A stretch of 27,007 nucleotides of DNA from a virus (Duplodnaviria > Caudoviricetes). The notes under the pieces were generated by a model. That model had not been told where the DNA came from, ran no database searches, and saw only the letters and a list, made by a program, of their open reading frames with translations. A program made the position numbers and the translations under genes. The stretch's first letter is position 1; each line of letters starts with the position of its first letter. The stretch covers positions 1 to 27,007 of the IMG/VR virus record IMGVR_UViG_3300044971_003805; one strand, given 5' to 3'. Positions 215 to 20,259 of the stretch are shown piece after piece.

Positions 215-2635
215 TCAGACCTTGGCGAGCGCGTCGAGGACCGCGCGCTCCTGTTCACGGAACCCGGACGAGAGCGCCTTCGAGTAGCGCGCGTCCCACG
301 TCTGCGCCTTGCGATCGAGTGCGCGCCAGACGCGCTCGCGCTCGTCGGCGGACATCGTCGAGATGACGACCTCGCCGTTCTTTGCGATCGACTCGCGCAG
401 CGACGCAGGCACGACGTTGTCTTCGCTCTCGACGATGACTGGAGCGATCGCGCAGCGGCAGTTGATGTCGAGCGCGCCGATGCCGAAGCCGCCGGGGTAC
501 ATGGCGCGCGCGCCGGTGTACCGGCCGACCGTGACCTCGAAGGGCTTCGTGAGGTCGCGCCGCTGCTCGTCCATCGCACGGTGCTCGTCGCGCGCGCGTC
601 CGTCCATCGTCGACAGCCACTCGTTCTGCATCACGATCCCGCTCTGCGTGAGCGCCTCCTTCGTCGCGAACTGCGACGAGCGCCGCACCTCGGTCTCCGC
701 GATGACGTCGCTGCGCTCGATCTCCGCGCGCGTGAAGACGGAGCGCACCGCCTCGGCGGGGTCGGCGTCGGTCTCTGCCGCCGCTTCGAGCGCGGTCTTC
801 AGTTCGGCCTTCGTCGTCGTGTTGATCAACCGGCCGAGTCGATCGGTGACGTACTCGCGGAGGTGAGCCTTCACGTTCGGGTCGTTCACGTCGAAGGGCT
901 TGCGGTCGAACCCGGTCGTCGCGCTCTCGACTGACTTCAGCGTGTCGTTGCCCCACGCCTCGACAAGCGAGCGCACGAGAGGTTCGATGCGAGAGCCGAG
1001 CGCCTTGACGTCGACGCTGTCGACGAGCGCATCGATCTGAGCCTTCGAGAGCGAGCGACGAACAAGCGCGCGGCGCGCCTCGCGAGCGCGAACGATCGCC
1101 GCCGTGTTCGACGCCTGCACCTCTGGCGAGAGCGTCGACGGTTCGGTCGGCGCGGCGAGCATCATGTTCGGGTCGAGGTACATGCCGACTGCGCGGTCGC
1201 CGCCCCACGAGTCGGAGGCCGGAGGCAGGCCGAGGCTCGTGCGGACCTCGTCGTTCGTGAGCACGCCGGCGGAGAGATGGTAGCCGTAGATCGGGATCGT
1301 CGCCGGCTTCGACAGGTCGGTCGAGTACAGCTTCCCGCTCGTCACCATGAACGCGTTTCCCTTGCCATCGGGCAGAGGGTCCATCTCGGCGAGCGCGCGA
1401 ATCTCGTCGATCGTGAACATCTCCGAGAACGCCTGCATGACGTTCTTCTTGAACTCGCGATCGCCGGGGACGGGGCTCTCGTAGTCAAGGACGAGGCGCG
1501 CGTCGAAGCGATCGACCAGTTTGTTCTGAAGTTCGCTGCGCCAGAGCTCCGCGCGAGGCACGAGGACGTCGTTCGCGAAGATGAACTGCGCCGACTCCGA
1601 CGTCGAGCGATTCGAGTTCTCGATGATGCCGAGCTTCTCCGGCGGGACGCCGAAGACCTGCACGATCGTGTTCCGCTCGAACGAGCGAATCTCGATCAGC
1701 GCCATGTCCTTGAACGCGGTGTCGAGGCGCTTCACGTCAAGCTTCGCGCCGGTCCAGTGCGTGCGGTACGCCTTCGCGAATCCGCGCGTGGCGTTGTCCC
1801 ATCGACGCTTCGCTTCTTCGAGTAGCGGACGCGACGCGCCTTCGAGAGAGATGAGCATGTCGGGCATGCCCTTGTTGTGGAACCACGTCGCGACGTGCTT
1901 CGCGGCGAACTCGTCGATGTCGAGTTCGTCGGCGAGAGCGAGGCCGGTACCGACGCCGCGACCGTAGGGATCGGCGGGGTTCTGGTCTCGGATGACGAGC
2001 ATGTTCTCGACGGGCACGTCGAACGAGACGCCGTCGACCTCGACGCGGAACGCTGGCTGCGTCTCGGTGGGAATCTGTTTGATCCACGTCGGCGGAATCG
2101 GCCACATCCGCACCGGCATCCCGGCGGGGTTCGTGTCGAGGACGATGTACGTCTCGCCGAGCAGGTCGAGGTGGACCTGACAGACCTGACGGAAAGCGCG
2201 GCCGGACATCAGCGGGTTCGGCTTGTCGAGCAGGACCTGCAACGGGTGCTCGTCGAGCAGCACAAGGTCGCCAGACGCGCGCGCCTTGCGGATCATCGCC
2301 GGGCGCAGCGACGGCGGCGAGGAGCGCAGCACCTTGTCGTCGACGAACTTCGTCGTGCCGTCGGCCGCTCGTGCCTGCCGCGCGTAGACCTTCCACTCGA
2401 TCGACGCGAACGACGACGCGATCTTGTGCGTCGTCGCGCGGAGCCACGGCGAGTTCTTGAATAGGTCGAGGAGTTCGTACGACCCGCGCGGCGGCGGCGC
2501 GCTCTGCTTGTACACGCCGCCCGAGACGTGACCGGGCATCAGCGTGTCGTCGATTCCCATCGTGACGATGCCGTCAGGAGTCGACGAGGCAGATGCGGCG
2601 GAGCGGCGACCGAAGAAGGCGTCGAGGATTCCCAT
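215..2635 (-). CDS. HK97-family portal protein fused to a C-terminal Mu gpF/SPP1 gp7-like head morphogenesis domain
   Basis: Portal motifs HPLQVLLDKPNPLMSG, LDLLGETY, DPYGRG, VFGVPPEKLG, TIDEIR; C-terminal IAETE, EWLSTMDGRARDEHRAMD, MYPG, INCRC typical of MuF. Confidence 0.9.
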   Translation of the reverse strand: MGILDAFFGRRSAASASSTPDGIVTMGIDDTLMPGHVSGGVYKQSAPPPRGSYELLDLFKNSPWLRATTHKIASSFASIEWKVYARQARAADGTTKFVDDKVLRSSPPSLRPAMIRKARASGDLVLLDEHPLQVLLDKPNPLMSGRAFRQVCQVHLDLLGETYIVLDTNPAGMPVRMWPIPPTWIKQIPTETQPAFRVEVDGVSFDVPVENMLVIRDQNPADPYGRGVGTGLALADELDIDEFAAKHVATWFHNKGMPDMLISLEGASRPLLEEAKRRWDNATRGFAKAYRTHWTGAKLDVKRLDTAFKDMALIEIRSFERNTIVQVFGVPPEKLGIIENSNRSTSESAQFIFANDVLVPRAELWRSELQNKLVDRFDARLVLDYESPVPGDREFKKNVMQAFSEMFTIDEIRALAEMDPLPDGKGNAFMVTSGKLYSTDLSKPATIPIYGYHLSAGVLTNDEVRTSLGLPPASDSWGGDRAVGMYLDPNMMLAAPTEPSTLSPEVQASNTAAIVRAREARRALVRRSLSKAQIDALVDSVDVKALGSRIEPLVRSLVEAWGNDTLKSVESATTGFDRKPFDVNDPNVKAHLREYVTDRLGRLINTTTKAELKTALEAAAETDADPAEAVRSVFTRAEIERSDVIAETEVRRSSQFATKEALTQSGIVMQNEWLSTMDGRARDEHRAMDEQRRDLTKPFEVTVGRYTGARAMYPGGFGIGALDINCRCAIAPVIVESEDNVVPASLRESIAKNGEVVISTMSADERERVWRALDRKAQTWDARYSKALSSGFREQERAVLDALAKV

Positions 2636-9779: not shown

Positions 9780-10303
9780 CGCGTGCGTCTCGCTGCCATC
9801 GCGTCGAGCGCGGACGCAAGAGCCTCGACGGCGTTGTCGAGCGAGTCGTCCTCGCCGCCATCGAACGCGTGGCGACCTGCCTCGACGTTGTCCTTCGCCC
9901 ATCGCGAGCGGTGCCGTCTTTCGAGTCGATGCGCCGCTGCCTTCCAGTCCTTCTCCGCTGCCTTCCCGATCAGCATGACGTCGCGGGCTTCACTCTCTGC
10001 CGCTGCCTTCTCGACGTCGTCGGAGAAGGACACAAGATCGACCTCGTATCCTCGCGGAGTGTATCCCGAAGTCGCGACGAGCCGACGCAGTTCTCCGCCT
10101 CTTTTCATCCACGAGTAGAACGTATCGCGATGGATGCCGACCGCCTGCGCGGCGACGTCGGGGAAGTTCCCGGCGCGCACGAGGTCGACGATGCGGCGCA
10201 TGATCGACGGATCGATCACGAACAACGGCGGACGATGACCAAGCGGCTTCGTCGTCGCCGCTTTCTTCTTCGTCGTCGGCTTGCGTTTCGATGTGGTAGC
10301 CAT
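9776..10303 (-). CDS. terS: Terminase small subunit
   Basis: HTH-like GNFPDVAAQAVGIHRDTFYSWMKRG and DWKAAAHRLERR; directly upstream of terL. Confidence 0.85.
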   Translation of the reverse strand: MATTSKRKPTTKKKAATTKPLGHRPPLFVIDPSIMRRIVDLVRAGNFPDVAAQAVGIHRDTFYSWMKRGGELRRLVATSGYTPRGYEVDLVSFSDDVEKAAAESEARDVMLIGKAAEKDWKAAAHRLERRHRSRWAKDNVEAGRHAFDGGEDDSLDNAVEALASALDAMAARRTR

Positions 10304-10323: not shown

Positions 10324-10929
10324 GTGAAGAAGAAGCCTAGCACCGACGAAGCGCCTGCGAAGGCGTCGTCGAAGATCAACCCCGCTCTCGAACCGCTCGC
10401 GCGCCCGACGGCTTCGCTGCGTCTCGACGAGCGCAACGCCCGCAAGCACGAGCGCCGGAGCATCGACACGATCAAGACGTCGCTCTCGACGTACGGGCAG
10501 CAGAAGCCGATCGTCGCCCTGACGAGCGGAACCGTCATCGCCGGCAACGGCACGCTCGAAGCGGCGCGAGAACTTGGATGGGAGAGGATCGCGGTCGTCA
10601 CGTTCGACACCGAGGACGAAGCGCGCGCGCGCGCGTTTGCCATCATGGACAACCGAACCTCCGATCTCTCGTCGTGGGATCGAGACGTGCTCGCCGAACT
10701 CCTCGAAGGGATTCCTTCGACGATGGTCGACGCGGTCGGCTTCTCGTCGCAGGAGATCGAGACGTTGCTCGCGCTCTCCGCCGGCGATCCAACGGCGGGA
10801 CTTCCGTCCGACTCGAAGCACGTCGGACAGTTCGGCGTGATCGTTCTCTGCGGAAGCGAGGAAGAACAGCGCGACGTCTACGATCGGATGATCGCAGAGG
10901 GTTTCTCTTGCAAGGTCGTCGCGACCTGA
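10324..10929 (+). CDS. ParB/Srx N-terminal-domain protein
   Basis: NARKH, SLSTYGQQKPIV, VIAGNGTLEAA, DNRTSDLSSWD; GGAGG RBS, GTG start. Confidence 0.88.
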   Translation: MKKKPSTDEAPAKASSKINPALEPLARPTASLRLDERNARKHERRSIDTIKTSLSTYGQQKPIVALTSGTVIAGNGTLEAARELGWERIAVVTFDTEDEARARAFAIMDNRTSDLSSWDRDVLAELLEGIPSTMVDAVGFSSQEIETLLALSAGDPTAGLPSDSKHVGQFGVIVLCGSEEEQRDVYDRMIAEGFSCKVVAT

Positions 10930-10941
10930 AGGGGTTGATCA

Positions 10942-12108
10942 ATGCTTGTCAGCGTGAGGAACAACTGCACCGACTTCTCGTCGTACAGGTCGGCGCGGGT
11001 CAAGAGTCTTTTCAACGTCGAGAGCGGAGCGAACTTCTCGATCGACGCGGACCTGCCGATCGAGGACGACGGCTGGTCGATCGGCGTCGTCGTCGGCCCG
11101 AGCGGTTCGGGCAAGACGTCGATCGGCCGTCGCGTGTTCGGCGACGGTGCGATCCACGCGCCGACGTGGCGAGGTGGTGTTCCGATCGTCGACGAGATAG
11201 CACCGGAGGGGAAGTTCGACGACGTCACGGCGGCGCTTGCCGCCGTCGGCCTTGGCAACGTGCCGTCGTGGCTTCGACCGTACGAAGTCCTGTCGAACGG
11301 CGAGAAGTTCCGCGCCGATCTCGCGCGCCTCGTCTGCGAGAAACCGGAGCGAGTCGTCGTCGACGAGTTCACGTCCGTCGTCGATCGGCAGATCGCGAAG
11401 TTCGGCGCGCTCGCGTTTCAGAAGTCGTGGCGTCGAACCGGCGGGAAGGCCGTTCTCCTGACGTGTCACTACGACGTGCTTGAGTGGATCGAACCGGACT
11501 GGATCTTCGACACGCAGACGAGACTCTTTCAGCGGAGGTCACTTCGGCGACCAAAGTTCGACGTTGAGGTGTTCGCGACAGACTGGAGTTACTGGCCGCT
11601 TTTTGAGCCGCATCACTATCTAAAGATTCCGAAGATGGTTGGGGCGCAGTGCTACGTCGGCGCGGTTGACGGCGAGCCGGTTTGCCACCTCGCCGTCGGG
11701 ACGATGGCACTCGGCAGGGACAGGTTCGAGGCGCGTGCGTGTCGACTCGTCGTCATGCCGGAATGGCAGGGTGCAGGCGTCGGCCTTCGCTTCCTCGATC
11801 ACGTCTGCCAGCTTCAGCTTGACGGTCTCGGCAGGACGGGTCGTCGGATCACGACGATGTTTCACACCTCGCATCCCGGCCTTGCCGCCGCGCTTCGACG
11901 GAACAGGAAGTGGGTTCAGGTTTCCGAGAGACTGTTCGCGAACAACGGCTCGACGAACAAGAAGGCCGCCGTCGCCTCGGGGATTCTGCGCGGTCGCAAG
12001 GTCGTCATGGGCGCGAAGCAGGCGGCGGCCGGCGGCTCGTGGTTCGGCGGACACCTTCGCGCGGTGCAGGGGTTTCGCTACATGGGCGATCGGGGCGGAG
12101 AGCGATGA
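10942..12108 (+). CDS. ABC-type ATPase fused to a Mom-like GNAT acyltransferase
   Basis: Walker A GPSGSGKT, signature LSNGE, Walker B VVVDE, H-loop TCH; then FEPHHYL and acyl-CoA motif RLVVMPEWQGAGVG. Confidence 0.88.
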   Translation: MLVSVRNNCTDFSSYRSARVKSLFNVESGANFSIDADLPIEDDGWSIGVVVGPSGSGKTSIGRRVFGDGAIHAPTWRGGVPIVDEIAPEGKFDDVTAALAAVGLGNVPSWLRPYEVLSNGEKFRADLARLVCEKPERVVVDEFTSVVDRQIAKFGALAFQKSWRRTGGKAVLLTCHYDVLEWIEPDWIFDTQTRLFQRRSLRRPKFDVEVFATDWSYWPLFEPHHYLKIPKMVGAQCYVGAVDGEPVCHLAVGTMALGRDRFEARACRLVVMPEWQGAGVGLRFLDHVCQLQLDGLGRTGRRITTMFHTSHPGLAAALRRNRKWVQVSERLFANNGSTNKKAAVASGILRGRKVVMGAKQAAAGGSWFGGHLRAVQGFRYMGDRGGER

Positions 12109-12770
12109 GGGTTGCGCTGTTCGGGCAACGCTCCTTCGGCGGGGGAGTTCTTCGATCCCTCGTCGAGCGTCACGAGATCGCGCTCGTGGTGTCGCCGCCG
12201 AACGACGAGGACGGACGCGAGGACCGAACGCGTGCGACGGCGTCGCTGCTCGATCTCCCTTGGCGCGCGTCGGGCACCGTCACGCCCGACGAGTTCCCAG
12301 ACGACGTCGACCTCATCGTCTGCGCGCACTCGCACGACTTCGTCGGACGGAGAACGCGCGCGCGTTCGAGGTTCGGGGCGGTCGGCTACCATCCGTCGTT
12401 GCTCCCGCTTCACCGAGGACGTGACGCCGTGAGGTGGACGATCCATATGCGGGACCGCGTCGCCGGCGGGAGCGTCTACTGGCTCTCCGACAACGTCGAC
12501 GGCGGAGACGTCGCCGCGCAGGAATGGTGCTTCGTTCGTCCCGACGACGACGCGTCGTCCCTCTGGCGTCGAGAGCTTTTCCCGATCGGCGTCCGTCTCC
12601 TGAACAGGGTCGTCGACGACGTTTCCGCGGGCGTTCTCGTTCGCGTACCGCAGGACGAGGAACTCGCGACGTGGGAACCGTCGTGGTCGCGCCCGCCGCT
12701 TCGACGACCCGAACTCCTCTGCCTACCGGAGCCGGGCAAGCGCGGGCCGGAGTTCGTCAGGACGCGCTAA
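12105..12770 (+). CDS. Formyltransferase (Fmt/PurN-like, 10-formyl-THF dependent)
   Basis: MRVALFG start (ATGA overlap), GYHPSLLPLHRG, VDGGD. Confidence 0.9.
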   Translation: MRVALFGQRSFGGGVLRSLVERHEIALVVSPPNDEDGREDRTRATASLLDLPWRASGTVTPDEFPDDVDLIVCAHSHDFVGRRTRARSRFGAVGYHPSLLPLHRGRDAVRWTIHMRDRVAGGSVYWLSDNVDGGDVAAQEWCFVRPDDDASSLWRRELFPIGVRLLNRVVDDVSAGVLVRVPQDEELATWEPSWSRPPLRRPELLCLPEPGKRGPEFVRTR

Positions 12771-12810
12771 ACGCAGGCCACAACAACCCCCGGCACGTCA
12801 AGGGGGGATT

Positions 12811-12847
12811 CGCCCGCCGCGATCCGCACGGCGGGCGTTCTTTTTTT
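12811..12847 (+). terminator. Rho-independent terminator
   Basis: 9-bp stem CGCCCGCCG/CGGCGGGCG followed by TTCTTTTTTT. Confidence 0.85.
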
Positions 12848-12942
12848 CACCGCCGCCCGGCTGATCCGGAAACGGCGGGACACCCTAAGCCAACGAAAAC
12901 ACGCGCTTTCCGGCGGTCGAACGTCGGGCGGCGAGCGGTCGC

Positions 12943-12971
12943 TTGACAGGCGAACGTCGGTCGCGTACGGT
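12943..12971 (+). promoter_or_regulatory. Strong sigma70-type early promoter
   Basis: TTGACA-17 nt-TACGGT; CGAACGTCGG direct repeat at 12918-12927 and 12951-12960. Confidence 0.8.
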
Positions 12972-12977
12972 TGCTGA

Positions 12978-13278
12978 GTCGGTTGCGGTTGACGCGGTCG
13001 ACGAAAAGCAGGCGGACGTCGGGACCGGTGAAACAGATCGGAACCCCCCGCTGAACAGAGACCCGGTCGGAGCAGGAGCGCGGAAACGCGTAGCCGGCGA
13101 GGACAGACCGGGAAGCAGAAAACAGAAAGCCGCGCCCGATGCGCGGACGACATCGAAGCGACGACGACGCGCCCACGGGGCGGGGTTCGTTCAACGCGAC
13201 GACGTCGACGAGGCATCGGGCGCAGCGACGACGACGTGAGCACCGCTCGCGTCGCGGTCGCTGCGCAACACCGCGACA
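12978..13278 (+). ncRNA. Long structured 5' leader or sRNA
   Basis: About 320 nt from predicted TSS to first ATG; stems 13023-13028/13063-13068, CGCG-GAAA-CGCG 13079-13090, perfect 11 bp 13132-13142/13213-13223; A-rich linkers. Confidence 0.5.
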
Positions 13279-13299
13279 GCACAACAGGGAGAGAAAGCT

Positions 13300-13464
13300 A
13301 TGAAGAACAACACCAACAAGATCAGCTTCGTCGTCGTCCGTAACTTCGACGGTCACGTCTACGGTCGCCGGTTCCGCACGGTGAAGGCCGCGATCGCCTA
13401 CATCGACGGGATGCGCGCCGTCGGTTCGTGCTGCGCACGCTACGTCGCGCAGATCGCCGAGTGA
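13300..13464 (+). CDS. 54-aa hypothetical protein (MKNNTNKISFVVVRNFDGHVYGRRFRTVKAAIAYIDG...)
   Basis: AGGGAG RBS, phage-typical codons; below the ORF-track cutoff. Confidence 0.8.
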   Translation: MKNNTNKISFVVVRNFDGHVYGRRFRTVKAAIAYIDGMRAVGSCCARYVAQIAE

Positions 13465-13591
13465 GAGATCGAGACGAGAACGCAACGGGGCGGCGAACGT
13501 CCCGGCATCGCCCGACGCATTCCGCGTCGACGACGTCGCGCGCTGTTCGATGCGCGCCGAGGCCCACGGACGGGCACAACAGGGAGCAACG

Positions 13592-14335
13592 ATGACGACC
13601 ACGAACAATACCGAGACCACGACGACGACCGCCTCGAAGACGAAGGTCACCGACCGCTACCACGCGCTCGTGATGCACGCCTACACGCTGCCGGAGTTCA
13701 CGTTCACGAAGTCGAAGAAGCCGACCTCGAAGGACTGCGACGAACTCAGCGAGGCGATCGCGAAGTACGAGGCCGGTCTGGCCGAGGTGATCGAGATGGC
13801 GACGGCGGCCCCGGTCGTCGAGGCCGCGCCCGTCGCCCCGCGCGCCGCGCTCGTCGAGGCGCTCGCCACGCTCGACGCGATCGACGGCGGCGCGTCGGCG
13901 GATGCGCTCACGGCTCCGACGACGGAGCGTGACGAGGCGCGCGCCAAGTTCTTCGGTGCGACGAAGGCCACGAAGGCGCACGGCTACCGGCTGCTCGCCG
14001 CAGCGACCGGAGACGGAAACCGTCGCGACTCGCTTCGTGCGGCACTTGCGGAGCTTCCGGAGGGAATCCGCGCCGGTGCCTGCAAGATCGCGATGTCGCT
14101 CGTCGTCGCCGGCGGGTCGATGCACGACGACCTGAAGGCCGTCCACGACGAGCAGCCCGCGCCGACGACGACGACCGGCGGCGGTCGGTCCCTCGGTGAC
14201 GGTGAGCGCCTCTGCACGGTGAGCAAGCCCGGCGGTCGCGCGGTCCTGCACCTCACGCTCCCGGAGCAGTTCCGCTCCGTCGACAAGGTCCGCGTCGTGA
14301 TCGCCGGAGACACGATCACGATCACGAAGGTCTGA
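13592..14335 (+). CDS. Hypothetical protein with possible C-terminal AbrB/SpoVT-like DNA-binding domain
   Basis: AGGGAG RBS before ATG 13592; C-terminus TVSKPGGRAVLHLTLPEQFRSVDKVRVVIAGDTITITKV. Confidence 0.75.
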   Translation: MTTTNNTETTTTTASKTKVTDRYHALVMHAYTLPEFTFTKSKKPTSKDCDELSEAIAKYEAGLAEVIEMATAAPVVEAAPVAPRAALVEALATLDAIDGGASADALTAPTTERDEARAKFFGATKATKAHGYRLLAAATGDGNRRDSLRAALAELPEGIRAGACKIAMSLVVAGGSMHDDLKAVHDEQPAPTTTTGGGRSLGDGERLCTVSKPGGRAVLHLTLPEQFRSVDKVRVVIAGDTITITKV

Positions 14336-14336
14336 A

Positions 14337-14410
14337 CCGAAAGCGGGCGACGCCCGCTCGACGCGCACGGCACGCCCACGTCGGGCGGCGCGTCCTGATG
14401 ATGGATGCCG
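14337..14410 (+). ncRNA. Type II hammerhead ribozyme with extra U after A9 and a pseudoknot
   Basis: GAAA 14339-14342, stem III 14343-14348/14352-14357, CUC cleavage triplet 14357-14359, stem I 14360-14366/14388-14394, CUGAUGA 14395-14401, 2-bp stem II, pseudoknot CGGCA 14368-14372/UGCCG 14406-14410. Confidence 0.88.
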
Positions 14411-14426
14411 ACACAGGGAGACCACG

Positions 14427-15464
14427 ATGAAGAACGACATCAGACAGTCAGCACCGCTCGCCTCCGATCGCGTCGGCTCCGTCGTCTGCTGGTCGGCGCA
14501 CGCCGTCAGCGTCGACGCACGCACGCTGCGCGCTGCCGTCCTTGACGCGCGCCGCTCGTTCGTCTGCCCGACGTGCGGCGCGGGCGACGGCGACGACTGC
14601 GTCGACGGTTTCGCCTCACCGCTCGATCGCGAACGTCTGCACGAGACCCGCGCCGGCGTGCTCGCTGGCATCGTTCACGACCCGGTCGAGCCGTCGGTCG
14701 CGATGACCCGCTCGATCGCTCGCCAGCGCAAGAGTGCCGACGGCCTGTCGTGGCGGCGCGGCACGCCCGACAAGGCGGCGAAGCACCTCGTCCCGGTCGT
14801 GCTCGTCGGCGACGAGCGCGTCGACGGGACGACGACGTTTGGCGACGCGGTCGCGCGGGCGCGATGGACGCTCGTCCACGACGAGCGCACCGGCGTCGTC
14901 GTCGTCCCGACCGGCCTCGACGATGTCGAGCAAGACGCGGTCGACGACCTCGTCGAGCGGTACGACCTCGAACGCTCCGCCCTGACCGCGCAGGACGTGT
15001 CGTCGATCTTGATCGGCGTCCTCGTCGGCCTCGGCGGGTTCTCGTTGAACGGCGGCGGAACTTACTTCGTGCCGCGCGACGGCGACGAGATCGTCGAGCG
15101 CCTCCGCCTGCGCGACGTGTTCGGCGCCGCCGGCTACCGGCTCAGCGTCCTCGACGTGCTCGCTGGCCGCGCCGACAACGTACGCGACGCCGCCGAAGAG
15201 TCGCTGCTTCGTGACGCGCAGGAGATCGCGACGGCGGCGACGGCGGCGAGCGAGAGGATGGCTGCCTTCATGTCGAACACCGGGAAGGGCAAGCCGCAGG
15301 CGCGAGCCGTCTTCGAGCGGCTCGAAGAGATCGAGGCGCTTCGTCGTCGCGGTCGCGCTCTCGCCCGCGTGTTGGGTGCGGCGACGGCGTCGATGGATGA
15401 CGCGCTCGCCGCTGCCGAGGCGAGCAGCCGCCGCGTTCTAGATGACCTTTCGCTCGTCGGTTGA
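14427..15464 (+). CDS. DUF3150/DUF6744-like protein with an inserted zinc finger
   Basis: GSVVCWS N-terminus, GGGTYFVP motif, helical C-terminus, position upstream of AAA+VWA; insert CPTCGA...C...H..R. Confidence 0.65.
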   Translation: MKNDIRQSAPLASDRVGSVVCWSAHAVSVDARTLRAAVLDARRSFVCPTCGAGDGDDCVDGFASPLDRERLHETRAGVLAGIVHDPVEPSVAMTRSIARQRKSADGLSWRRGTPDKAAKHLVPVVLVGDERVDGTTTFGDAVARARWTLVHDERTGVVVVPTGLDDVEQDAVDDLVERYDLERSALTAQDVSSILIGVLVGLGGFSLNGGGTYFVPRDGDEIVERLRLRDVFGAAGYRLSVLDVLAGRADNVRDAAEESLLRDAQEIATAATAASERMAAFMSNTGKGKPQARAVFERLEEIEALRRRGRALARVLGAATASMDDALAAAEASSRRVLDDLSLVG

Positions 15465-15501
15465 CGACGGCCGCGTTGCCCCGGCGATACGGGGCGAACA
15501 T

Positions 15502-15587
15502 GGGGCGCTTCGGAGGATGGGCTGTCGGCGTGGGACTCCCCTGCGCGTCGACTCCCATCGGCGGGTTCGACGCCCGCCCGCCCCACC
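15502..15587 (+). ncRNA. tRNA-like element (acceptor stem and T-arm, long central helix, no canonical anticodon loop or D arm)
   Basis: GGGGCG/CGCCCC-A-CC, GGCGGG-TTCGACG-CCCGCC, central GATGGG/CCCATC and GTCGGCG/CGTCGAC. Confidence 0.6.
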
Positions 15588-15638
15588 TTTCGTCGACGCC
15601 GCCTTGACGTCGACGTACCCGAACAAAGGAACCGCACC

Positions 15639-16811
15639 ATGAAGAAGATCGCCATCGTCCCGTCGTCTCCGTCCTCGCCGCGTCAGCGCATGATCGACCT
15701 CATCGACGCGCTCAACGCCGCCGTGCTCGAACGCTCGACTGAGTCTCGCCTGCTCGTCGCGTGCGCCATCGCCGGCCACCACGCGCTCCTGCTCGGTGAG
15801 CCCGGCACCGGCAAGTCGTACCTCGCCGAGGCGCTCGCCTCGGCCATCGAGGCGGAGTGCTTCCGCTACCTCATGGGGAAGGCGACGACGCCCGACGAGA
15901 TCATCGGCGCGCCGGACCTGAAGCGATGGAGCGACACCGGCGAACGCGTCCTGCGGACGCGGCACAAGCTGACGTCGGCAGTGATCGGCTTCCTCGACGA
16001 AGTGTTCAAGTCGAACTCGGTCGTCCTGAACTCGATCCTCCGGCTCGTCAACGAACGCACCTACATCGACGACGCCGGCGAGCACGCGTCGCCGCTGCGC
16101 TTCGTCGTCGCGGCGTCGAACGAGACACCGGAGCCGGGCGAGGTTGACGCCTTCTACGATCGATTCCTCGTCGCGCTCTGCGTCGAGCCGGTCGCCGACC
16201 CGGTCAACCGGCGCGCACTCGCTCGTCGCCAGTTGCCGCCGCGTCCGTCGAAGGTCGCGACGCTCGCCGACCTCGACGCCGCTCGCGCTGAGGCTCGCGC
16301 GCTGCCGATTAGTGACGCGGCGATCGACGCGCTCGACGCCGTCGTGTCGTCGCTGCGCTCCAAGGGCATCGTGGTCAGCGACCGGCGCTTTCAGGCGACG
16401 ATCGACCTGATGCAGGTATGCGCGTGGCTCGACGGGCACGCCGAAGTCGGCGCGGCCTCGGTCGACGTCGCGCGACACACCGCGTGGCGACGACTCGATC
16501 AGCGCGCCGCCGTCGATGCCGCCGTCGAGGCAGCGATGCCGAAGGTCGACGCGGACCTGACGAAGATCGGGAAGGTGCTCGCCGAACAGGACGCCGCGAT
16601 CCGCGCGTCGTCGACCCTCTCGACGAAGGCCCGCCGGCAGGAGGCACTGGGCGCTGTCGCCGACGTGCTCGACGACCTGACCGCAGACCTCGACCGACTC
16701 GAACGAGAGAACCCGAACGCGAAGCCGGCGATCGACATCGTCCGCGCCCGCGTGAAGACCACGAACGAAGCCTGCAACGCGGCGACGATCGCCGCCTTCC
16801 GCACGAAGTGA
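15639..16811 (+). CDS. MoxR/RavA-family AAA+ ATPase
   Basis: GEPGTGKS, FLDEVFKSNS, ASNE, AFYDRF, VSDRR. Confidence 0.92.
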   Translation: MKKIAIVPSSPSSPRQRMIDLIDALNAAVLERSTESRLLVACAIAGHHALLLGEPGTGKSYLAEALASAIEAECFRYLMGKATTPDEIIGAPDLKRWSDTGERVLRTRHKLTSAVIGFLDEVFKSNSVVLNSILRLVNERTYIDDAGEHASPLRFVVAASNETPEPGEVDAFYDRFLVALCVEPVADPVNRRALARRQLPPRPSKVATLADLDAARAEARALPISDAAIDALDAVVSSLRSKGIVVSDRRFQATIDLMQVCAWLDGHAEVGAASVDVARHTAWRRLDQRAAVDAAVEAAMPKVDADLTKIGKVLAEQDAAIRASSTLSTKARRQEALGAVADVLDDLTADLDRLERENPNAKPAIDIVRARVKTTNEACNAATIAAFRTK

Positions 16812-16820
16812 GGGACGACC

Positions 16821-18266
16821 ATGCGAGACCTGACCTACCGGGTGAGCGCCACGACGGCGCGCGCCTTCGACAGGAGCAACGACGAACTCGGAGACGCGGC
16901 GACGAAGCACGCGTCGAAGATCGCGGAGTGGCAGTCGTTCGGGCGCGAAGCGTTCGGCCGCCTGTACCGCCCGCAGGACGCGACGCGCACCGTGACCGCG
17001 CCCGACTCGTGGGCGCTGCGCGCGACCGATGCGCTGACGACGTCGCCCGACTGGAACGAGGCCGTCGAGGCTTCGCGCTCTCACCGGGTCGTCGCGGCGG
17101 CGACGACGGCGACGCTGCTCGACGCCGTCGCGAAGGCGCTCGGTGTTGACGGGATGCCCGACGGCGGTTCGTCGGCCGATCCGCGCTCGCTCGACCGGGC
17201 GGCGCGGCGCGCGCAAGAAGCGGCGCAGGCCGCATGGGAGCGCATGACGCAAGCGAACGACGAGCGCGACGACGCGGCGGCGAAGGACGCGCGCGACGAG
17301 TTCGACGCGGCGAGTGCGGCGGCGAAGGCCGCCGACGTCGCGGCGGCGCAGGCTCGTGGGCGTCGGGCGATGCTCGAAGGCGCAGCGAAGGCGCAGGCGG
17401 CGAAGGTCGCGGTCGCCGTTGCGAAGGCGGCGAAGGAGGCGAAGGCGATGGCGGAGGCCGTCGCGTTGCTCGCCGGCGTCGGTGTCGGCGGCGACGGCGT
17501 CGAGGGCGACATCGACGAGGAACTGTTGCGCCTCGTTCGTGACAGCGCCGACGTTCGCGAAGTGCTCCGTCAGGTCGGCCGCTCGAAGGACGCGGCGGCG
17601 AAGCGCACCGGGCTTCGTGACGGCGGGCGGCTCGACGTCCTCGGCGTCGACGCCGGGCGCGACGTGTTCTCGCTGGCGTCGTCGGAGATGTTGCTCCTGT
17701 CGATGGGCGGCGTCGCTCGCCTCGACGTGCTGTCGCGTGCGGAGCAAGGCGCGGCGCTCGTCGTCTCGCGCGCCGGCGACAAGCCCGCCGAGGCCGGCGA
17801 CTTCGTCCTGCTCGTCGACCGTTCGGGGTCGATGGCTGGCGCGCGGCAGCGGTCGGCGCGGGCGTTCGCGATGGGCGCGATCCTGCGCGCCCTCGGCGAG
17901 CGTCGCCGCGTCGTGGTCGTCGCGTTCGACGACGGCCCGGCGGCGCGCGCCGTGGTCGAGCGTGACGGGAGCGGCTTGCCCGACGCCGTGCGCGCGTTGC
18001 TCTTGCCGGCGTACGGCGGGACCGACGCGGTCGGCGCGATGCGCGCGGCTGTCGGTGCGTTGACGGCGAACGAGCGCGCGCGCGTCGACACGTTGATCGT
18101 GACCGATGGGCAGTGGGCGGACCCGACGCCGGAGACGCTGCGCCTGCTTCGTCGCGGCGGCGGCTCGTTCAAGGCCGTGCTCGTCGACGGCGTGGGCGAG
18201 TCGAAGGACTGGCTCGACGGGGTCTGGACGATGTCGTCGACCGGCGACGTGAAGCAGGTCCGGTGA
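16821..18266 (+). CDS. VWA-domain protein (ViaA-like MoxR partner)
   Basis: MIDAS DRSGSM, GGT, VTDG after an Ala-rich coiled coil. Confidence 0.9.
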   Translation: MRDLTYRVSATTARAFDRSNDELGDAATKHASKIAEWQSFGREAFGRLYRPQDATRTVTAPDSWALRATDALTTSPDWNEAVEASRSHRVVAAATTATLLDAVAKALGVDGMPDGGSSADPRSLDRAARRAQEAAQAAWERMTQANDERDDAAAKDARDEFDAASAAAKAADVAAAQARGRRAMLEGAAKAQAAKVAVAVAKAAKEAKAMAEAVALLAGVGVGGDGVEGDIDEELLRLVRDSADVREVLRQVGRSKDAAAKRTGLRDGGRLDVLGVDAGRDVFSLASSEMLLLSMGGVARLDVLSRAEQGAALVVSRAGDKPAEAGDFVLLVDRSGSMAGARQRSARAFAMGAILRALGERRRVVVVAFDDGPAARAVVERDGSGLPDAVRALLLPAYGGTDAVGAMRAAVGALTANERARVDTLIVTDGQWADPTPETLRLLRRGGGSFKAVLVDGVGESKDWLDGVWTMSSTGDVKQVR

Positions 18267-18348
18267 CGGCAAGGGGCTCGCGCCCCGCTTCGACCGCGTG
18301 AGTTCGCCTCGCGCTGTCGAAGCCGCGCGTGAGCGGCGGGAGGACGAG

Positions 18349-18636
18349 ATGAGAGAACTGACCGACGAACAGAAAGCGAAGATCGAGGCCGACGCGCTGC
18401 GCGTGTTATCTCAGTTTTCCGACATCGTAAGCAGCGACAGGACAAGCCCCGAGGCGCTCGTCGTTGCGACGGCGGCGCAGGCGGTGCTTGCGCTGCTCTA
18501 CTTCGCGAACGAGTGCGATCGCGGCGACCGTACCGCGCTCGCGGTCGTGCTCTCCGACGTCGGAGTGCAGATCGGAAAGATGATCCACACCGAGGCGCTG
18601 CGGGTGCAGCGCGAAGCAAGCCACGAGGTGAACTGA
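18349..18636 (+). CDS. Hypothetical protein
   Basis: GGAGG RBS before ATG 18349; TGATG-coupled to the next ORF. Confidence 0.75.
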   Translation: MRELTDEQKAKIEADALRVLSQFSDIVSSDRTSPEALVVATAAQAVLALLYFANECDRGDRTALAVVLSDVGVQIGKMIHTEALRVQREASHEVN

Positions 18637-18956
18637 TGCAGGCGACAGCAGTGATCGCGACGTTGTCGTCGCGCGGATGGAAACGAATCGCGGTGAGCGG
18701 AGCGAGCGTGATCGCCGTCGTCGACGGCGTTCGCGTCACGATCAGCTTCGACAGCGAGATGATGTTCGACCCCGTCGAGGAGACGCACGTCCTGTCGACG
18801 TCGATCGTTCTGCTCGTCGACGGCGTCGAGCGCGGACGCATCGAACGCTGGCCGCTCTTGCCCGATGAAGAACTCTCGACGCTCGACGAGGCGGCCCGCC
18901 TCGCCGAGGCCGTCGTGCGAACAGGCGACGACGTCGCCGTGGAGATGGACCGATGA
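18636..18956 (+). CDS. Hypothetical protein
   Basis: Coupled at both ends (TGATG, ATGA); GAGGTG RBS. Confidence 0.75.
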   Translation: MQATAVIATLSSRGWKRIAVSGASVIAVVDGVRVTISFDSEMMFDPVEETHVLSTSIVLLVDGVERGRIERWPLLPDEELSTLDEAARLAEAVVRTGDDVAVEMDR

Positions 18957-19183
18957 ACGAAGTGATGGACCTTGACGACGCTGCGGCGTTCGTCCGGCTC
19001 TCGAAGAAGCTGCTCGCACGAGCGGCACGGCGCGGCGGTCTCCGCTGCGCGTTGATCCCATCGTCGACCGGCGGCGGCGGCTACCGGTTCACGCGCGCGG
19101 CGTTGATCGAGTGGGTCGACGCCGGGTGCCCCGGCAGCAGCGGCGCCGCAGACAACGTCGACGAGAAGGACGGTGAGGAATGA
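18953..19183 (+). CDS. Excisionase-like / MerR-type helix-turn-helix protein
   Basis: VMDLDDAAAFVRLS...GYRFTRAALIEW. Confidence 0.8.
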   Translation: MNEVMDLDDAAAFVRLSKKLLARAARRGGLRCALIPSSTGGGGYRFTRAALIEWVDAGCPGSSGAADNVDEKDGEE

Positions 19184-20259
19184 AGATCGAAGACGTCGAG
19201 ATCGGAGCAAGCGAGGCGGCGGCGGCGATCGGGTTGTCGCCGTACAAGTCGCCGGCGGGACTCTGGGCGGAGAAGATGCGACTCGTCGAGCGTGGCGGCG
19301 GCAACGAGGCGACGTTCCTCGGGACGTTCGTCGAGCACGCGATCGCCGACGCGTTCGCCGCGAGGAACGACGTACGCCCGCGCCGATGGGAGACCGTGCG
19401 CGGTGTCCTTCGTCCGTGGCTGCGCGTGTCTCCCGATCGCGTGTTGCTTGGCGAGGACCTGTCGCCGGGCTTCCGTCGGGAGCACGCGCTCGATCCCGGC
19501 GAGGCCGTCGTCGTCGAGATCAAGACGACGGGCCTCGCGTCGTACCGGCCACCGTCGAAGCTGTCGGCAGAGTGGGGCGAGGAAGGCACGTCGGCGATCC
19601 CGCCGCAGTACCTCGTGCAGGTGCAGCTTCAGTTGGCGGCGATGCATAAGGTTCTCGTCGACAGCGGTCGCGGCTACGTTACGCGAGCGATCGTCGCGGC
19701 ACTGATTCCCGGTCGCGGTCTCGTCGAGTTCGTCGTGCGTTCCGACGAGGAAGTGCAGCAACGCATCCTCGCCGGCCTTGACAAGTTCGTGAACGATCAC
19801 CTCGTCGCCGAGGTCTCGCCGGAGCCGGCGAGCGCCGACGACTGGCGCGCGTTCGCGGAGCAGGTCAAGCGCCCGCAAGCGTCGAAGGAGGTCGTGCGCG
19901 TAGAGCCGGGCGACCCGCTCGAAGTGCTGCTCGCGGACTACGTCGCCGCCGACGTGTTCTTCAAGGACGCGGAGGCAGCGAAGGAGCGGATGCGCGCGAA
20001 GATCATCGAGGCCGTCGGAGACCGCTACGGCATCGAGAGCGAACGAGTGCGCGCGACCTACAGCGCAGGCAAGACGACGCCGAAGCTGTCGCAGGGAGCG
20101 TTCGTCGACGAGGTGCTCGCGCTCGCGCGTGCGGAGTCGACGTCAGACAAACCGGAGCGCGCGAAGATGGCGCGCTCGATCCTCGACGCTGCGGAGCGCA
20201 ACACCCGCAGCGTCGTCACCGGACGCGCGCTGCGCGTCACCACGAAGGGAGACGAGTGA
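19180..20259 (+). CDS. YqaJ/lambda-exonuclease-family recombinase nuclease
   Basis: IGASEAAAAIGLSPYKSP, SPDR, EIKT, YLVQVQLQL. Confidence 0.92.
   Translation: MKIEDVEIGASEAAAAIGLSPYKSPAGLWAEKMRLVERGGGNEATFLGTFVEHAIADAFAARNDVRPRRWETVRGVLRPWLRVSPDRVLLGEDLSPGFRREHALDPGEAVVVEIKTTGLASYRPPSKLSAEWGEEGTSAIPPQYLVQVQLQLAAMHKVLVDSGRGYVTRAIVAALIPGRGLVEFVVRSDEEVQQRILAGLDKFVNDHLVAEVSPEPASADDWRAFAEQVKRPQASKEVVRVEPGDPLEVLLADYVAADVFFKDAEAAKERMRAKIIEAVGDRYGIESERVRATYSAGKTTPKLSQGAFVDEVLALARAESTSDKPERAKMARSILDAAERNTRSVVTGRALRVTTKGDE

Follow-up and report, generated by a model that had tools for sequence, protein, structure and literature searches.

A type II hammerhead bearing an extra hairpin in loop I, between two genes of a phage operon

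The locus and the anatomy of the element

The window, i.e., the whole stretch of 27,007 nt analyzed here, is a 27-kb virus record with an estimated completeness of 47%. Its minus strand carries genes for terminase and portal, its plus strand a block of MoxR ATPase, VWA, excisionase-like, RecE-like, RecT-like, and DnaB-like genes. The element lies on the plus strand between two ORFs (Table 1), the proteins of which have no match in Pfam or PHROGs. Judging by the MoxR/VWA-to-DnaB genes downstream of them, both would be early genes. A search of named phages with the window gave three short DNA matches at chance level and no protein match, and neither a cultured relative nor a host was found.

A promoter scan of positions 12600-19300 returned no site at threshold, and the −10 element that would go with a TTGACA at about 12944 is poor. 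A terminator-like hairpin followed by a T run (12811-12848, plus strand) stands after a formyltransferase-like gene, and it is likely to mark the upstream limit of the operon. Before it, a ParB-like N-terminal domain protein, an ABC-ATPase/GNAT fusion, and the formyltransferase-like gene follow each other in a row (10324-12770, plus strand). The first two have homologs in L309, one of the orthologous loci described below, and the trio is possibly a DNA-modification module.

The preliminary description of this DNA, made from its letters, had proposed a complete type II hammerhead, and every component that it listed is present, including the 2-bp stem II, the bulged extra U, and the perfect 5-bp pseudoknot. 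By the core definition of PMC3088659, the element has C3 U4 G5 A6 N7 G8 A9, G12 A13 A14 A15.1, U16.1, and H17. All closing pairs are intact: 1.1-2.1 (G14360-C14394), 10.1-11.1 (G14403-C14338, with U14402 bulged), and 15.1-16.1 (A14342-U14358). Stems I and III each have a closing loop and stem II is open, in the order GAAA, site, CUGANGA that defines type II, and the pseudoknot between the periphery of stem I and the 3′ tail, for which the definition asks at least four pairs, has five. The earlier placement of the ribozyme, starting just past a stop codon and ending just ahead of the next Shine-Dalgarno (SD) sequence, is borne out as well (Table 1). Its core position G14397 corresponds to G5, and the cut that it predicted after 14359 agrees with the consensus position of C17.

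Table 1. Positions in the window of the element, its parts, and its neighbors
Feature	Position	Strand	Remarks
Upstream ORF, 247 aa	13592..14335	+	No known family
Stop codon TGA of upstream ORF	14333..14335	+	Followed by a single A (14336) before the ribozyme
Stem II strand CC (C11.2, C11.1)	14337..14338	+	Invariant in 7/7
Core GAAA (G12-A15.1)	14339..14342	+	Invariant in 7/7
Stem III: A15.1-U16.1 and 6 G-C pairs, 3-nt loop	14342..14358	+	14343-14348 with 14352-14357 (6 bp); A14342-U14358 = A15.1-U16.1; double-sided changes in 4/6 pairs counted
Predicted cleavage site, 3′ of C17 (C14359)	14359..14360	+	Consensus position; triplet CUC
Stem I, whole	14360..14394	+	7-bp proximal helix, 6-nt bulge, 5-bp distal hairpin
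Stem I, proximal helix	14360..14366 with 14388..14394	+	7 bp; double-sided changes in 1/7 pairs
Stem I, bulge	14367..14372	+	6 nt
Stem I, distal hairpin	14373..14387	+	Helix 14373-14377 with 14383-14387; double-sided changes in 2/5 pairs
Core CUGAUGA (C3-A9)	14395..14401	+	Invariant in 7/7
Extra U between A9 and G10.1, bulged	14402	+	Invariant in 7/7; register test on 121 insertion copies
Stem II strand GG (G10.1, G10.2)	14403..14404	+	Pairs with CC 14337-14338
3′ tail, pseudoknot partner of 14368-14372	14406..14410	+	5 Watson-Crick pairs; double-sided changes in 2/5
Shine-Dalgarno-like AGGGAG	14415..14420	+	Also precedes the ORFs at 13300 and 13592
Downstream ORF, 345 aa	14427..15464	+	No known family; ATG at 14427
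tRNA-top-half-like conserved RNA	15501..15587	+	In the gap before the MoxR gene

The element thus belongs to a kind known since 2011. Perreault et al. 2011 described type II hammerheads, frequently located between genes of prophages, in which stem II has 2 bp and the tail forms a pseudoknot (PMC3088659). The window copy is like these pseudoknotted hammerheads (PMC3088659; Rfam RF02276) in its permutation, its complete core, its two-pair stem II, the pseudoknot of at least four pairs right after stem II, and its site between phage genes. It differs from the RF02276 type in its structure. In loop I the pseudoknot strand is followed on its 3′ side by an extra 5-bp hairpin, which makes the strand a bulge and not a terminal loop, and the pair G15.2-C16.2 with a CUC triplet replaces C15.2-G16.2 with GUC. 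The window holds one well-formed type II copy and not a cluster as in tandem prophage hammerheads; types I and III were screened in the window by Rfam. A tandem array in this phage was also rejected: in G001 and in G002, each 86% complete, a single one of the pattern matches is recognized by eye as a copy.

Conservation, covariation, and competing folds

Orthologs were sought by pattern scans of viral and metagenome contigs followed by a structure filter. Most rows of the pattern scans, those for the extra U (below) included, were chance ones, with 29 of 119 past a loose filter, 8 distinct among 66 loci, and 42 distinct among 127 loci; two of the scans forced GUC, and triplet counts of the pooled set are therefore biased. 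Three distinct orthologous loci were found, L098 (the same as L309), L278 (L291), and L279 (L293). In all three the ribozyme is kept at the same gene junction and both flanking genes are homologous, with 39-78% amino-acid identity for the upstream ORF (L278, L279, and L309) and 61-94% for the downstream ORF in the longer loci. A protein-led search with the downstream ORF gave one identical copy, L002, and nothing else.

The ribozyme is much more conserved than its neighbors. The stop codon and ribozyme together (78 nt) are identical at 74/78 positions to L309 and at 73/78 to L293, against 219/433 and 216/433 for the upstream coding stretch and 309/474 and 313/474 for the downstream one, i.e., about 95% versus 50-66% in the two loci measured. 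In a contig of sequencing run X7 spanning the region there are at least three substitutions within 14336-14410, and those listed (14350, 14378, and 14381) all fall in loops; runs X5 and X6 cover the element in part. No RNA data set is listed among the sequencing runs, which is uninformative on expression.

The loop I hairpin is also present, in other gene contexts, in L026, L037, and L096. Together with the window and its three orthologs these form a set of seven sequences, in which 97.7% of 174 cells are paired (28-50% in slid controls), as are 33 of the 35 cells of the pseudoknot. Double-sided changes occur in 9 of 25 pairs, in stem III, both parts of stem I, and the pseudoknot (Table 1), a count that overstates the independent events because the seven sequences are related (L037 and L096 are nearly identical). 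Stem II is invariant in the seven; it varies in the wider type II set (GGC/GCC, GGG/CCC, GAC/GTC, and GCC/GGC). Four of the seven have GUC at the cleavage site, and the change from GUC to CUC is accompanied by a matching swap of C15.2 to G15.2 in stem III. Throughout the family, pseudoknots of at least 5 bp are found in 88 of 170 copies, against a mean of 17 (maximum 30) when the tails are permuted.

A window of 68% G+C could produce a ribozyme-like pattern by chance, and the folding energy of the element is unremarkable (z = −0.83; 41 of 200 shuffles fold equally well). Yet a strict descriptor (7 for stem III, 7 for stem I, and 2 for stem II, with an insertion permitted and the pseudoknot optional) has one match in the window and none in 2000 dinucleotide shuffles, with matches in 1, 11, 30, and 166 of the 2000 under four looser settings. 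These shuffles, the covariation, and a conservation far above that of the flanking genes refute a chance match, the probability of which we regard as negligible.

In the lowest-energy nested fold of 14336-14411, a competing 6-bp hairpin (14390-14395 with 14403-14408) buries CUGAUGA, at −35.2 kcal/mol versus −33.1 for the active fold without its pseudoknot, which the folding program is unable to score. The predicted probability of the proximal stem I ranges from 0.03 to 0.59 depending on the fragment. A rival reading is that this hairpin is the main state and that the element, slow or without activity, is retained for a structural or protein-binding role; the CUC triplet, the 2-bp stem II, and the lack of an Rfam match are consistent with this. 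The catalytic positions are however invariant in 7/7 sequences while stem III changes in a compensatory manner, the shift from GUC to CUC is paired with the swap at 15.2, and the folding program is blind to the very pseudoknot at issue, which makes such a role very improbable. On its sequence, the hammerhead is very probably active. Against this stand the 4 of 18 consensus-matching hammerheads that were inactive in vitro in Perreault et al. 2011 (PMC3088659). Against a fast cut stand the competing hairpin and the CUC triplet, the best ones being GUC and AUC (PMC9217987).

The extra U and the miss by Rfam

The preliminary description took the nucleotide inserted after A9 as the mark of a special variant. 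This is not supported. Viral contigs (1/64 parts of the collection) were scanned blind to the position, with a pattern ending at CUGAYGA and nothing fixed beyond it. Among the 131 loci there are 84 distinct well-formed phage type II hammerheads, in a sample that holds related phages unthinned; 45 have no insertion, 37 have U (five of them from one array), one has G, and the last one, mis-parsed, also has U by eye. The extra U was thus rejected as a rare feature, and at roughly four of ten phage type II copies sampled it is far more frequent than the word variant implies. It is a common form among phage type II hammerheads, as judged from these sequences. Counting all loci, U is the inserted base in 116 of 121 insertion copies, some of the scans having forced U. 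Pairing the U against C as a mismatch was considered in place of a bulge and is disfavored: in 121/121 insertion copies the bulge register gives the longer Watson-Crick run, in a test that leans to the bulge since copies were classed by at least two pairs in that register.

Plain and U-insertion forms coexist within single phages (L336, L428, L246, and G005). Bacterial genomes with U-insertion copies include Ruminococcus, Planctomycetota, and Streptomyces mangrovi records. In the latter, at L467 and L468, adjoining type II hammerheads have U, A, or C inserted, a natural series for this base. G005:C1 878-13922 (L308, L070), in a 112-kb viral contig, has 23 consecutive type II hammerheads, of which 22 carry the extra U and one lacks it; in 21 of the 22 intervals between them there is an ORF of 55-309 aa that starts with ATG.

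An extra nucleotide at this place has precedents in print, as the preliminary description had noted for viroids (PMC3705267). The CChMVd (+) hammerhead has one extra nucleotide between A9 and G10.1 (PMC3705267, PMC1636495), and the minimal hammerheads of Penelope elements have a conserved one in the same place (PMC4209133). These belong to a viroid, in which it is A (A10) and not U, and to a retroelement; both have other permutations than the window copy, and the descriptions compared mention no tail pseudoknot. An extra U at the equivalent position of the CChMVd hammerhead raised the rate of trans-cleavage 3-4-fold (PMC3705267). In the alignments known so far, up to one or two nucleotides are inserted beside CUGAnGA (Eckert et al. 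2023, PMC10085705).

A tested ribozyme that apparently has the same U is HH3, the third hammerhead of a triple arrangement in a prophage of Agrobacterium tumefaciens C58. As read from primers JP090, JP096, JP130, and JP139 (Table S1), JP130 having a conflicting organism label, it is type II with CC before GAAA and, like the window copy, has CUGAUGA followed by an extra U, a stem II that opens with GG, and, one base on, a pseudoknot of 5 bp; unlike the window copy, it has no hairpin on loop I and is one of three in a row. Perreault et al. 2011 report cleavage products, both in vitro and in E. coli, as expected from three active ribozymes, and the labels of their Fig. S2 give 486- and 418-nt products bounded by HH3 (PMC3088659). 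In the genomes HH3 was not recovered, as 4 of 401 matched the pattern and none of these is a ribozyme by eye.

The preliminary description also expected that standard models may miss the element, and this part stands. No RF02276 match was found in the window (E up to 5) or in the 251 nt of 14250-14500 (E up to 10), and the window copy does not reach the 37 bits of the scored model; being below that score, it is assigned by its defining anatomy and not as an Rfam match. The insertion does not explain the miss, and it was rejected as its cause, because among copies picked from the well-formed set RF02276 gives at least 37 bits to 10/10 with the extra U, as it does to 10/10 plain ones. Two members of the hairpin clade score 25.3 (L083) and 22.7 bits (L096) against this cut-off, L098 being unlisted, and in an earlier set with longer loops many copies are below it. 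The miss is probably due to the hairpin added in loop I and/or the swap to G15.2-C16.2. As one more phage type II hammerhead, the element matters little. What is particular to the window copy is this added hairpin, common to a small clade that Rfam misses, and phage ribozyme counts are thus too low.

A literature search, mostly of open-access papers, gave no description of the loop I hairpin clade and no report of the frequency of the extra U in phage type II copies. The text of Perreault et al. 2011, its type II alignment (Dataset S1) aside, does not single out the extra U as a variant in the parts available (PMC3088659). The extra U or the hairpin of loop I may already appear in that alignment, in the descriptor file, or in Weinberg et al. 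2015.

Predicted cleavage and the upstream gene

Tandem prophage hammerheads cleave in vitro and in E. coli, and Perreault et al. 2011 propose that long phage transcripts are processed by hammerheads (PMC3088659). A 2019 review considers the role of bacterial ribozymes largely elusive, with polycistron processing only suggested (PMC6765202). A parallel in genome position is HHphage of haloviruses HF1/HF2, a single hammerhead shortly before a start codon in an early region, with a mapped 5′ end within 3 nt of the cut site; unlike the window copy, it has its insertion near C3 and not after A9, and it belongs to an archaeal virus (PMC3088659).

We regard it as probable that the window element, a common phage hammerhead of the pseudoknot type predicted to cut after C14359, splits the operon mRNA between the two genes, with a role in processing and protection. 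Stems III and I would be complete before the tail is made, which would favor the active fold, and the pseudoknot would dock stem I against the weak 2-bp stem II. Such a role for the pseudoknot has been shown by mutation and rescue in another type II ribozyme (PMC3088659). By the standard reaction, the cut would leave a 2′,3′-cyclic phosphate on the upstream piece and a 5′-OH on the downstream piece. The upstream message would then terminate in the stem III hairpin and the downstream one begin at the 12-bp stem I hairpin, 55 nt ahead of the SD. In the cleaved products the predicted pairing is 0.98 and 0.95 for stem I and 0.98 for stem III. A 5′-OH and a 5′ hairpin hinder 5′-end-dependent decay. 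Hence, once the RNA is cut, how long the downstream genes' message lasts and how it is translated would no longer be tied to the upstream genes, and a hairpin-protected 5′-OH end on the downstream mRNA, as the preliminary description had proposed, is a reasonable expectation. Sequestration of the SD as a switch was considered and rejected: four of its six bases are unpaired with probability of at least 0.96 in the 3′ product and two with 0.02-0.04, which is weak evidence either way.

Cleavage could also lower expression, by opening an entry point for decay that steps down one of the flanking gene blocks. This is what happens in glmS, where cleavage is followed by degradation by cellular RNases (PMC6765202). 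However, a 12-bp hairpin starts at the very first base of the 3′ piece and another stands at the end of the 5′ piece, and in G005, where nearly every gene has its own ribozyme and SD, processing fits better than destruction. A decay entry point is thus improbable here.

In the window, L278, and L279, and by alignment in L098, 3 nt separate the upstream TGA from GAAA. Of 127 relatives (one ribozyme per locus, the G005 array left out, loci unthinned by homology), 77 have their GAAA 2-6 nt after the end of an ORF of at least 40 aa. When the upstream sequence is shuffled (200 runs) the mean is 7.1 and the maximum 17, and of the 1012 further GAAA tetramers that these loci contain, 40 have such a stop spacing. 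The adjacency is alike in plain (23/39) and insertion copies (54/88). It was not found reported in the literature search, with the scope given above. The footprint of a terminating ribosome reaches about 10-15 nt past the stop codon. Translation gating of cleavage is possible because such a ribosome would cover the first strand of the ribozyme, i.e., CC-GAAA and the first strand of stem III, and the cut would then occur only when the upstream gene is unread, so that the ribozyme would act as a sensor of translation upstream. The stop spacing of the window and its three orthologs, and its frequency in relatives above the controls, are in favor of gating. The close packing of genes in phages, though, accounts for the spacing just as well. 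Moreover, L026, L037, and L096 share the stem I hairpin and have no ORF of at least 30 aa ending within 40 nt of the ribozyme, and a fast ribozyme could cut between ribosomes, so that occlusion may do nothing. On balance gating is unlikely, and processing with protection remains the reading that we prefer. The strong tie to stop codons nevertheless offers a simple test of what phage ribozymes do, and a ribozyme that occurs once, flanked by two conserved genes, makes a clean substrate for a reporter.

A second conserved RNA lies after the 345-aa gene (Table 1) and recurs in L309 (about 9885-9975) and in L293. It resembles the top half of a tRNA, with a 7-bp acceptor-like stem, a long hairpin, and a T-arm-like stem with GGUUCGAC, then CC. 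Double-sided changes are seen in 5 of 46 predicted pairs (three sequences). No Rfam family is above cut-off for this RNA, the best being a 17-nt match to the tmRNA T-arm (7.2 bits), and ARAGORN finds no tRNA in four loci. On the predicted structure it may be a second processing site, possibly an RNase P site. A more speculative proposal is that phage type II hammerheads sit in the footprint of the terminating ribosome and that their cleavage reports upstream translation, and that the hammerhead and this RNA here excise the 345-aa gene as its own message; we find this doubtful.

Two further stretches of the operon are conserved outside genes. A leader (13125-13290, plus strand), the long hairpin of which lies immediately ahead of the SD, precedes the first small ORF and is found in L309 (7587-7761; 88% identical over 180 nt) and L293; it has double-sided changes in 6 of 48 pairs (three sequences) and no Rfam family above cut-off. 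A third intergenic stretch (13480-13590, plus strand) is partly conserved and similar in L309 and L293. Elsewhere, in L314, a type II hammerhead with the U insertion has a twister-sister ribozyme (216-299, minus strand; 74 bits) at a distance of about 190 nt.
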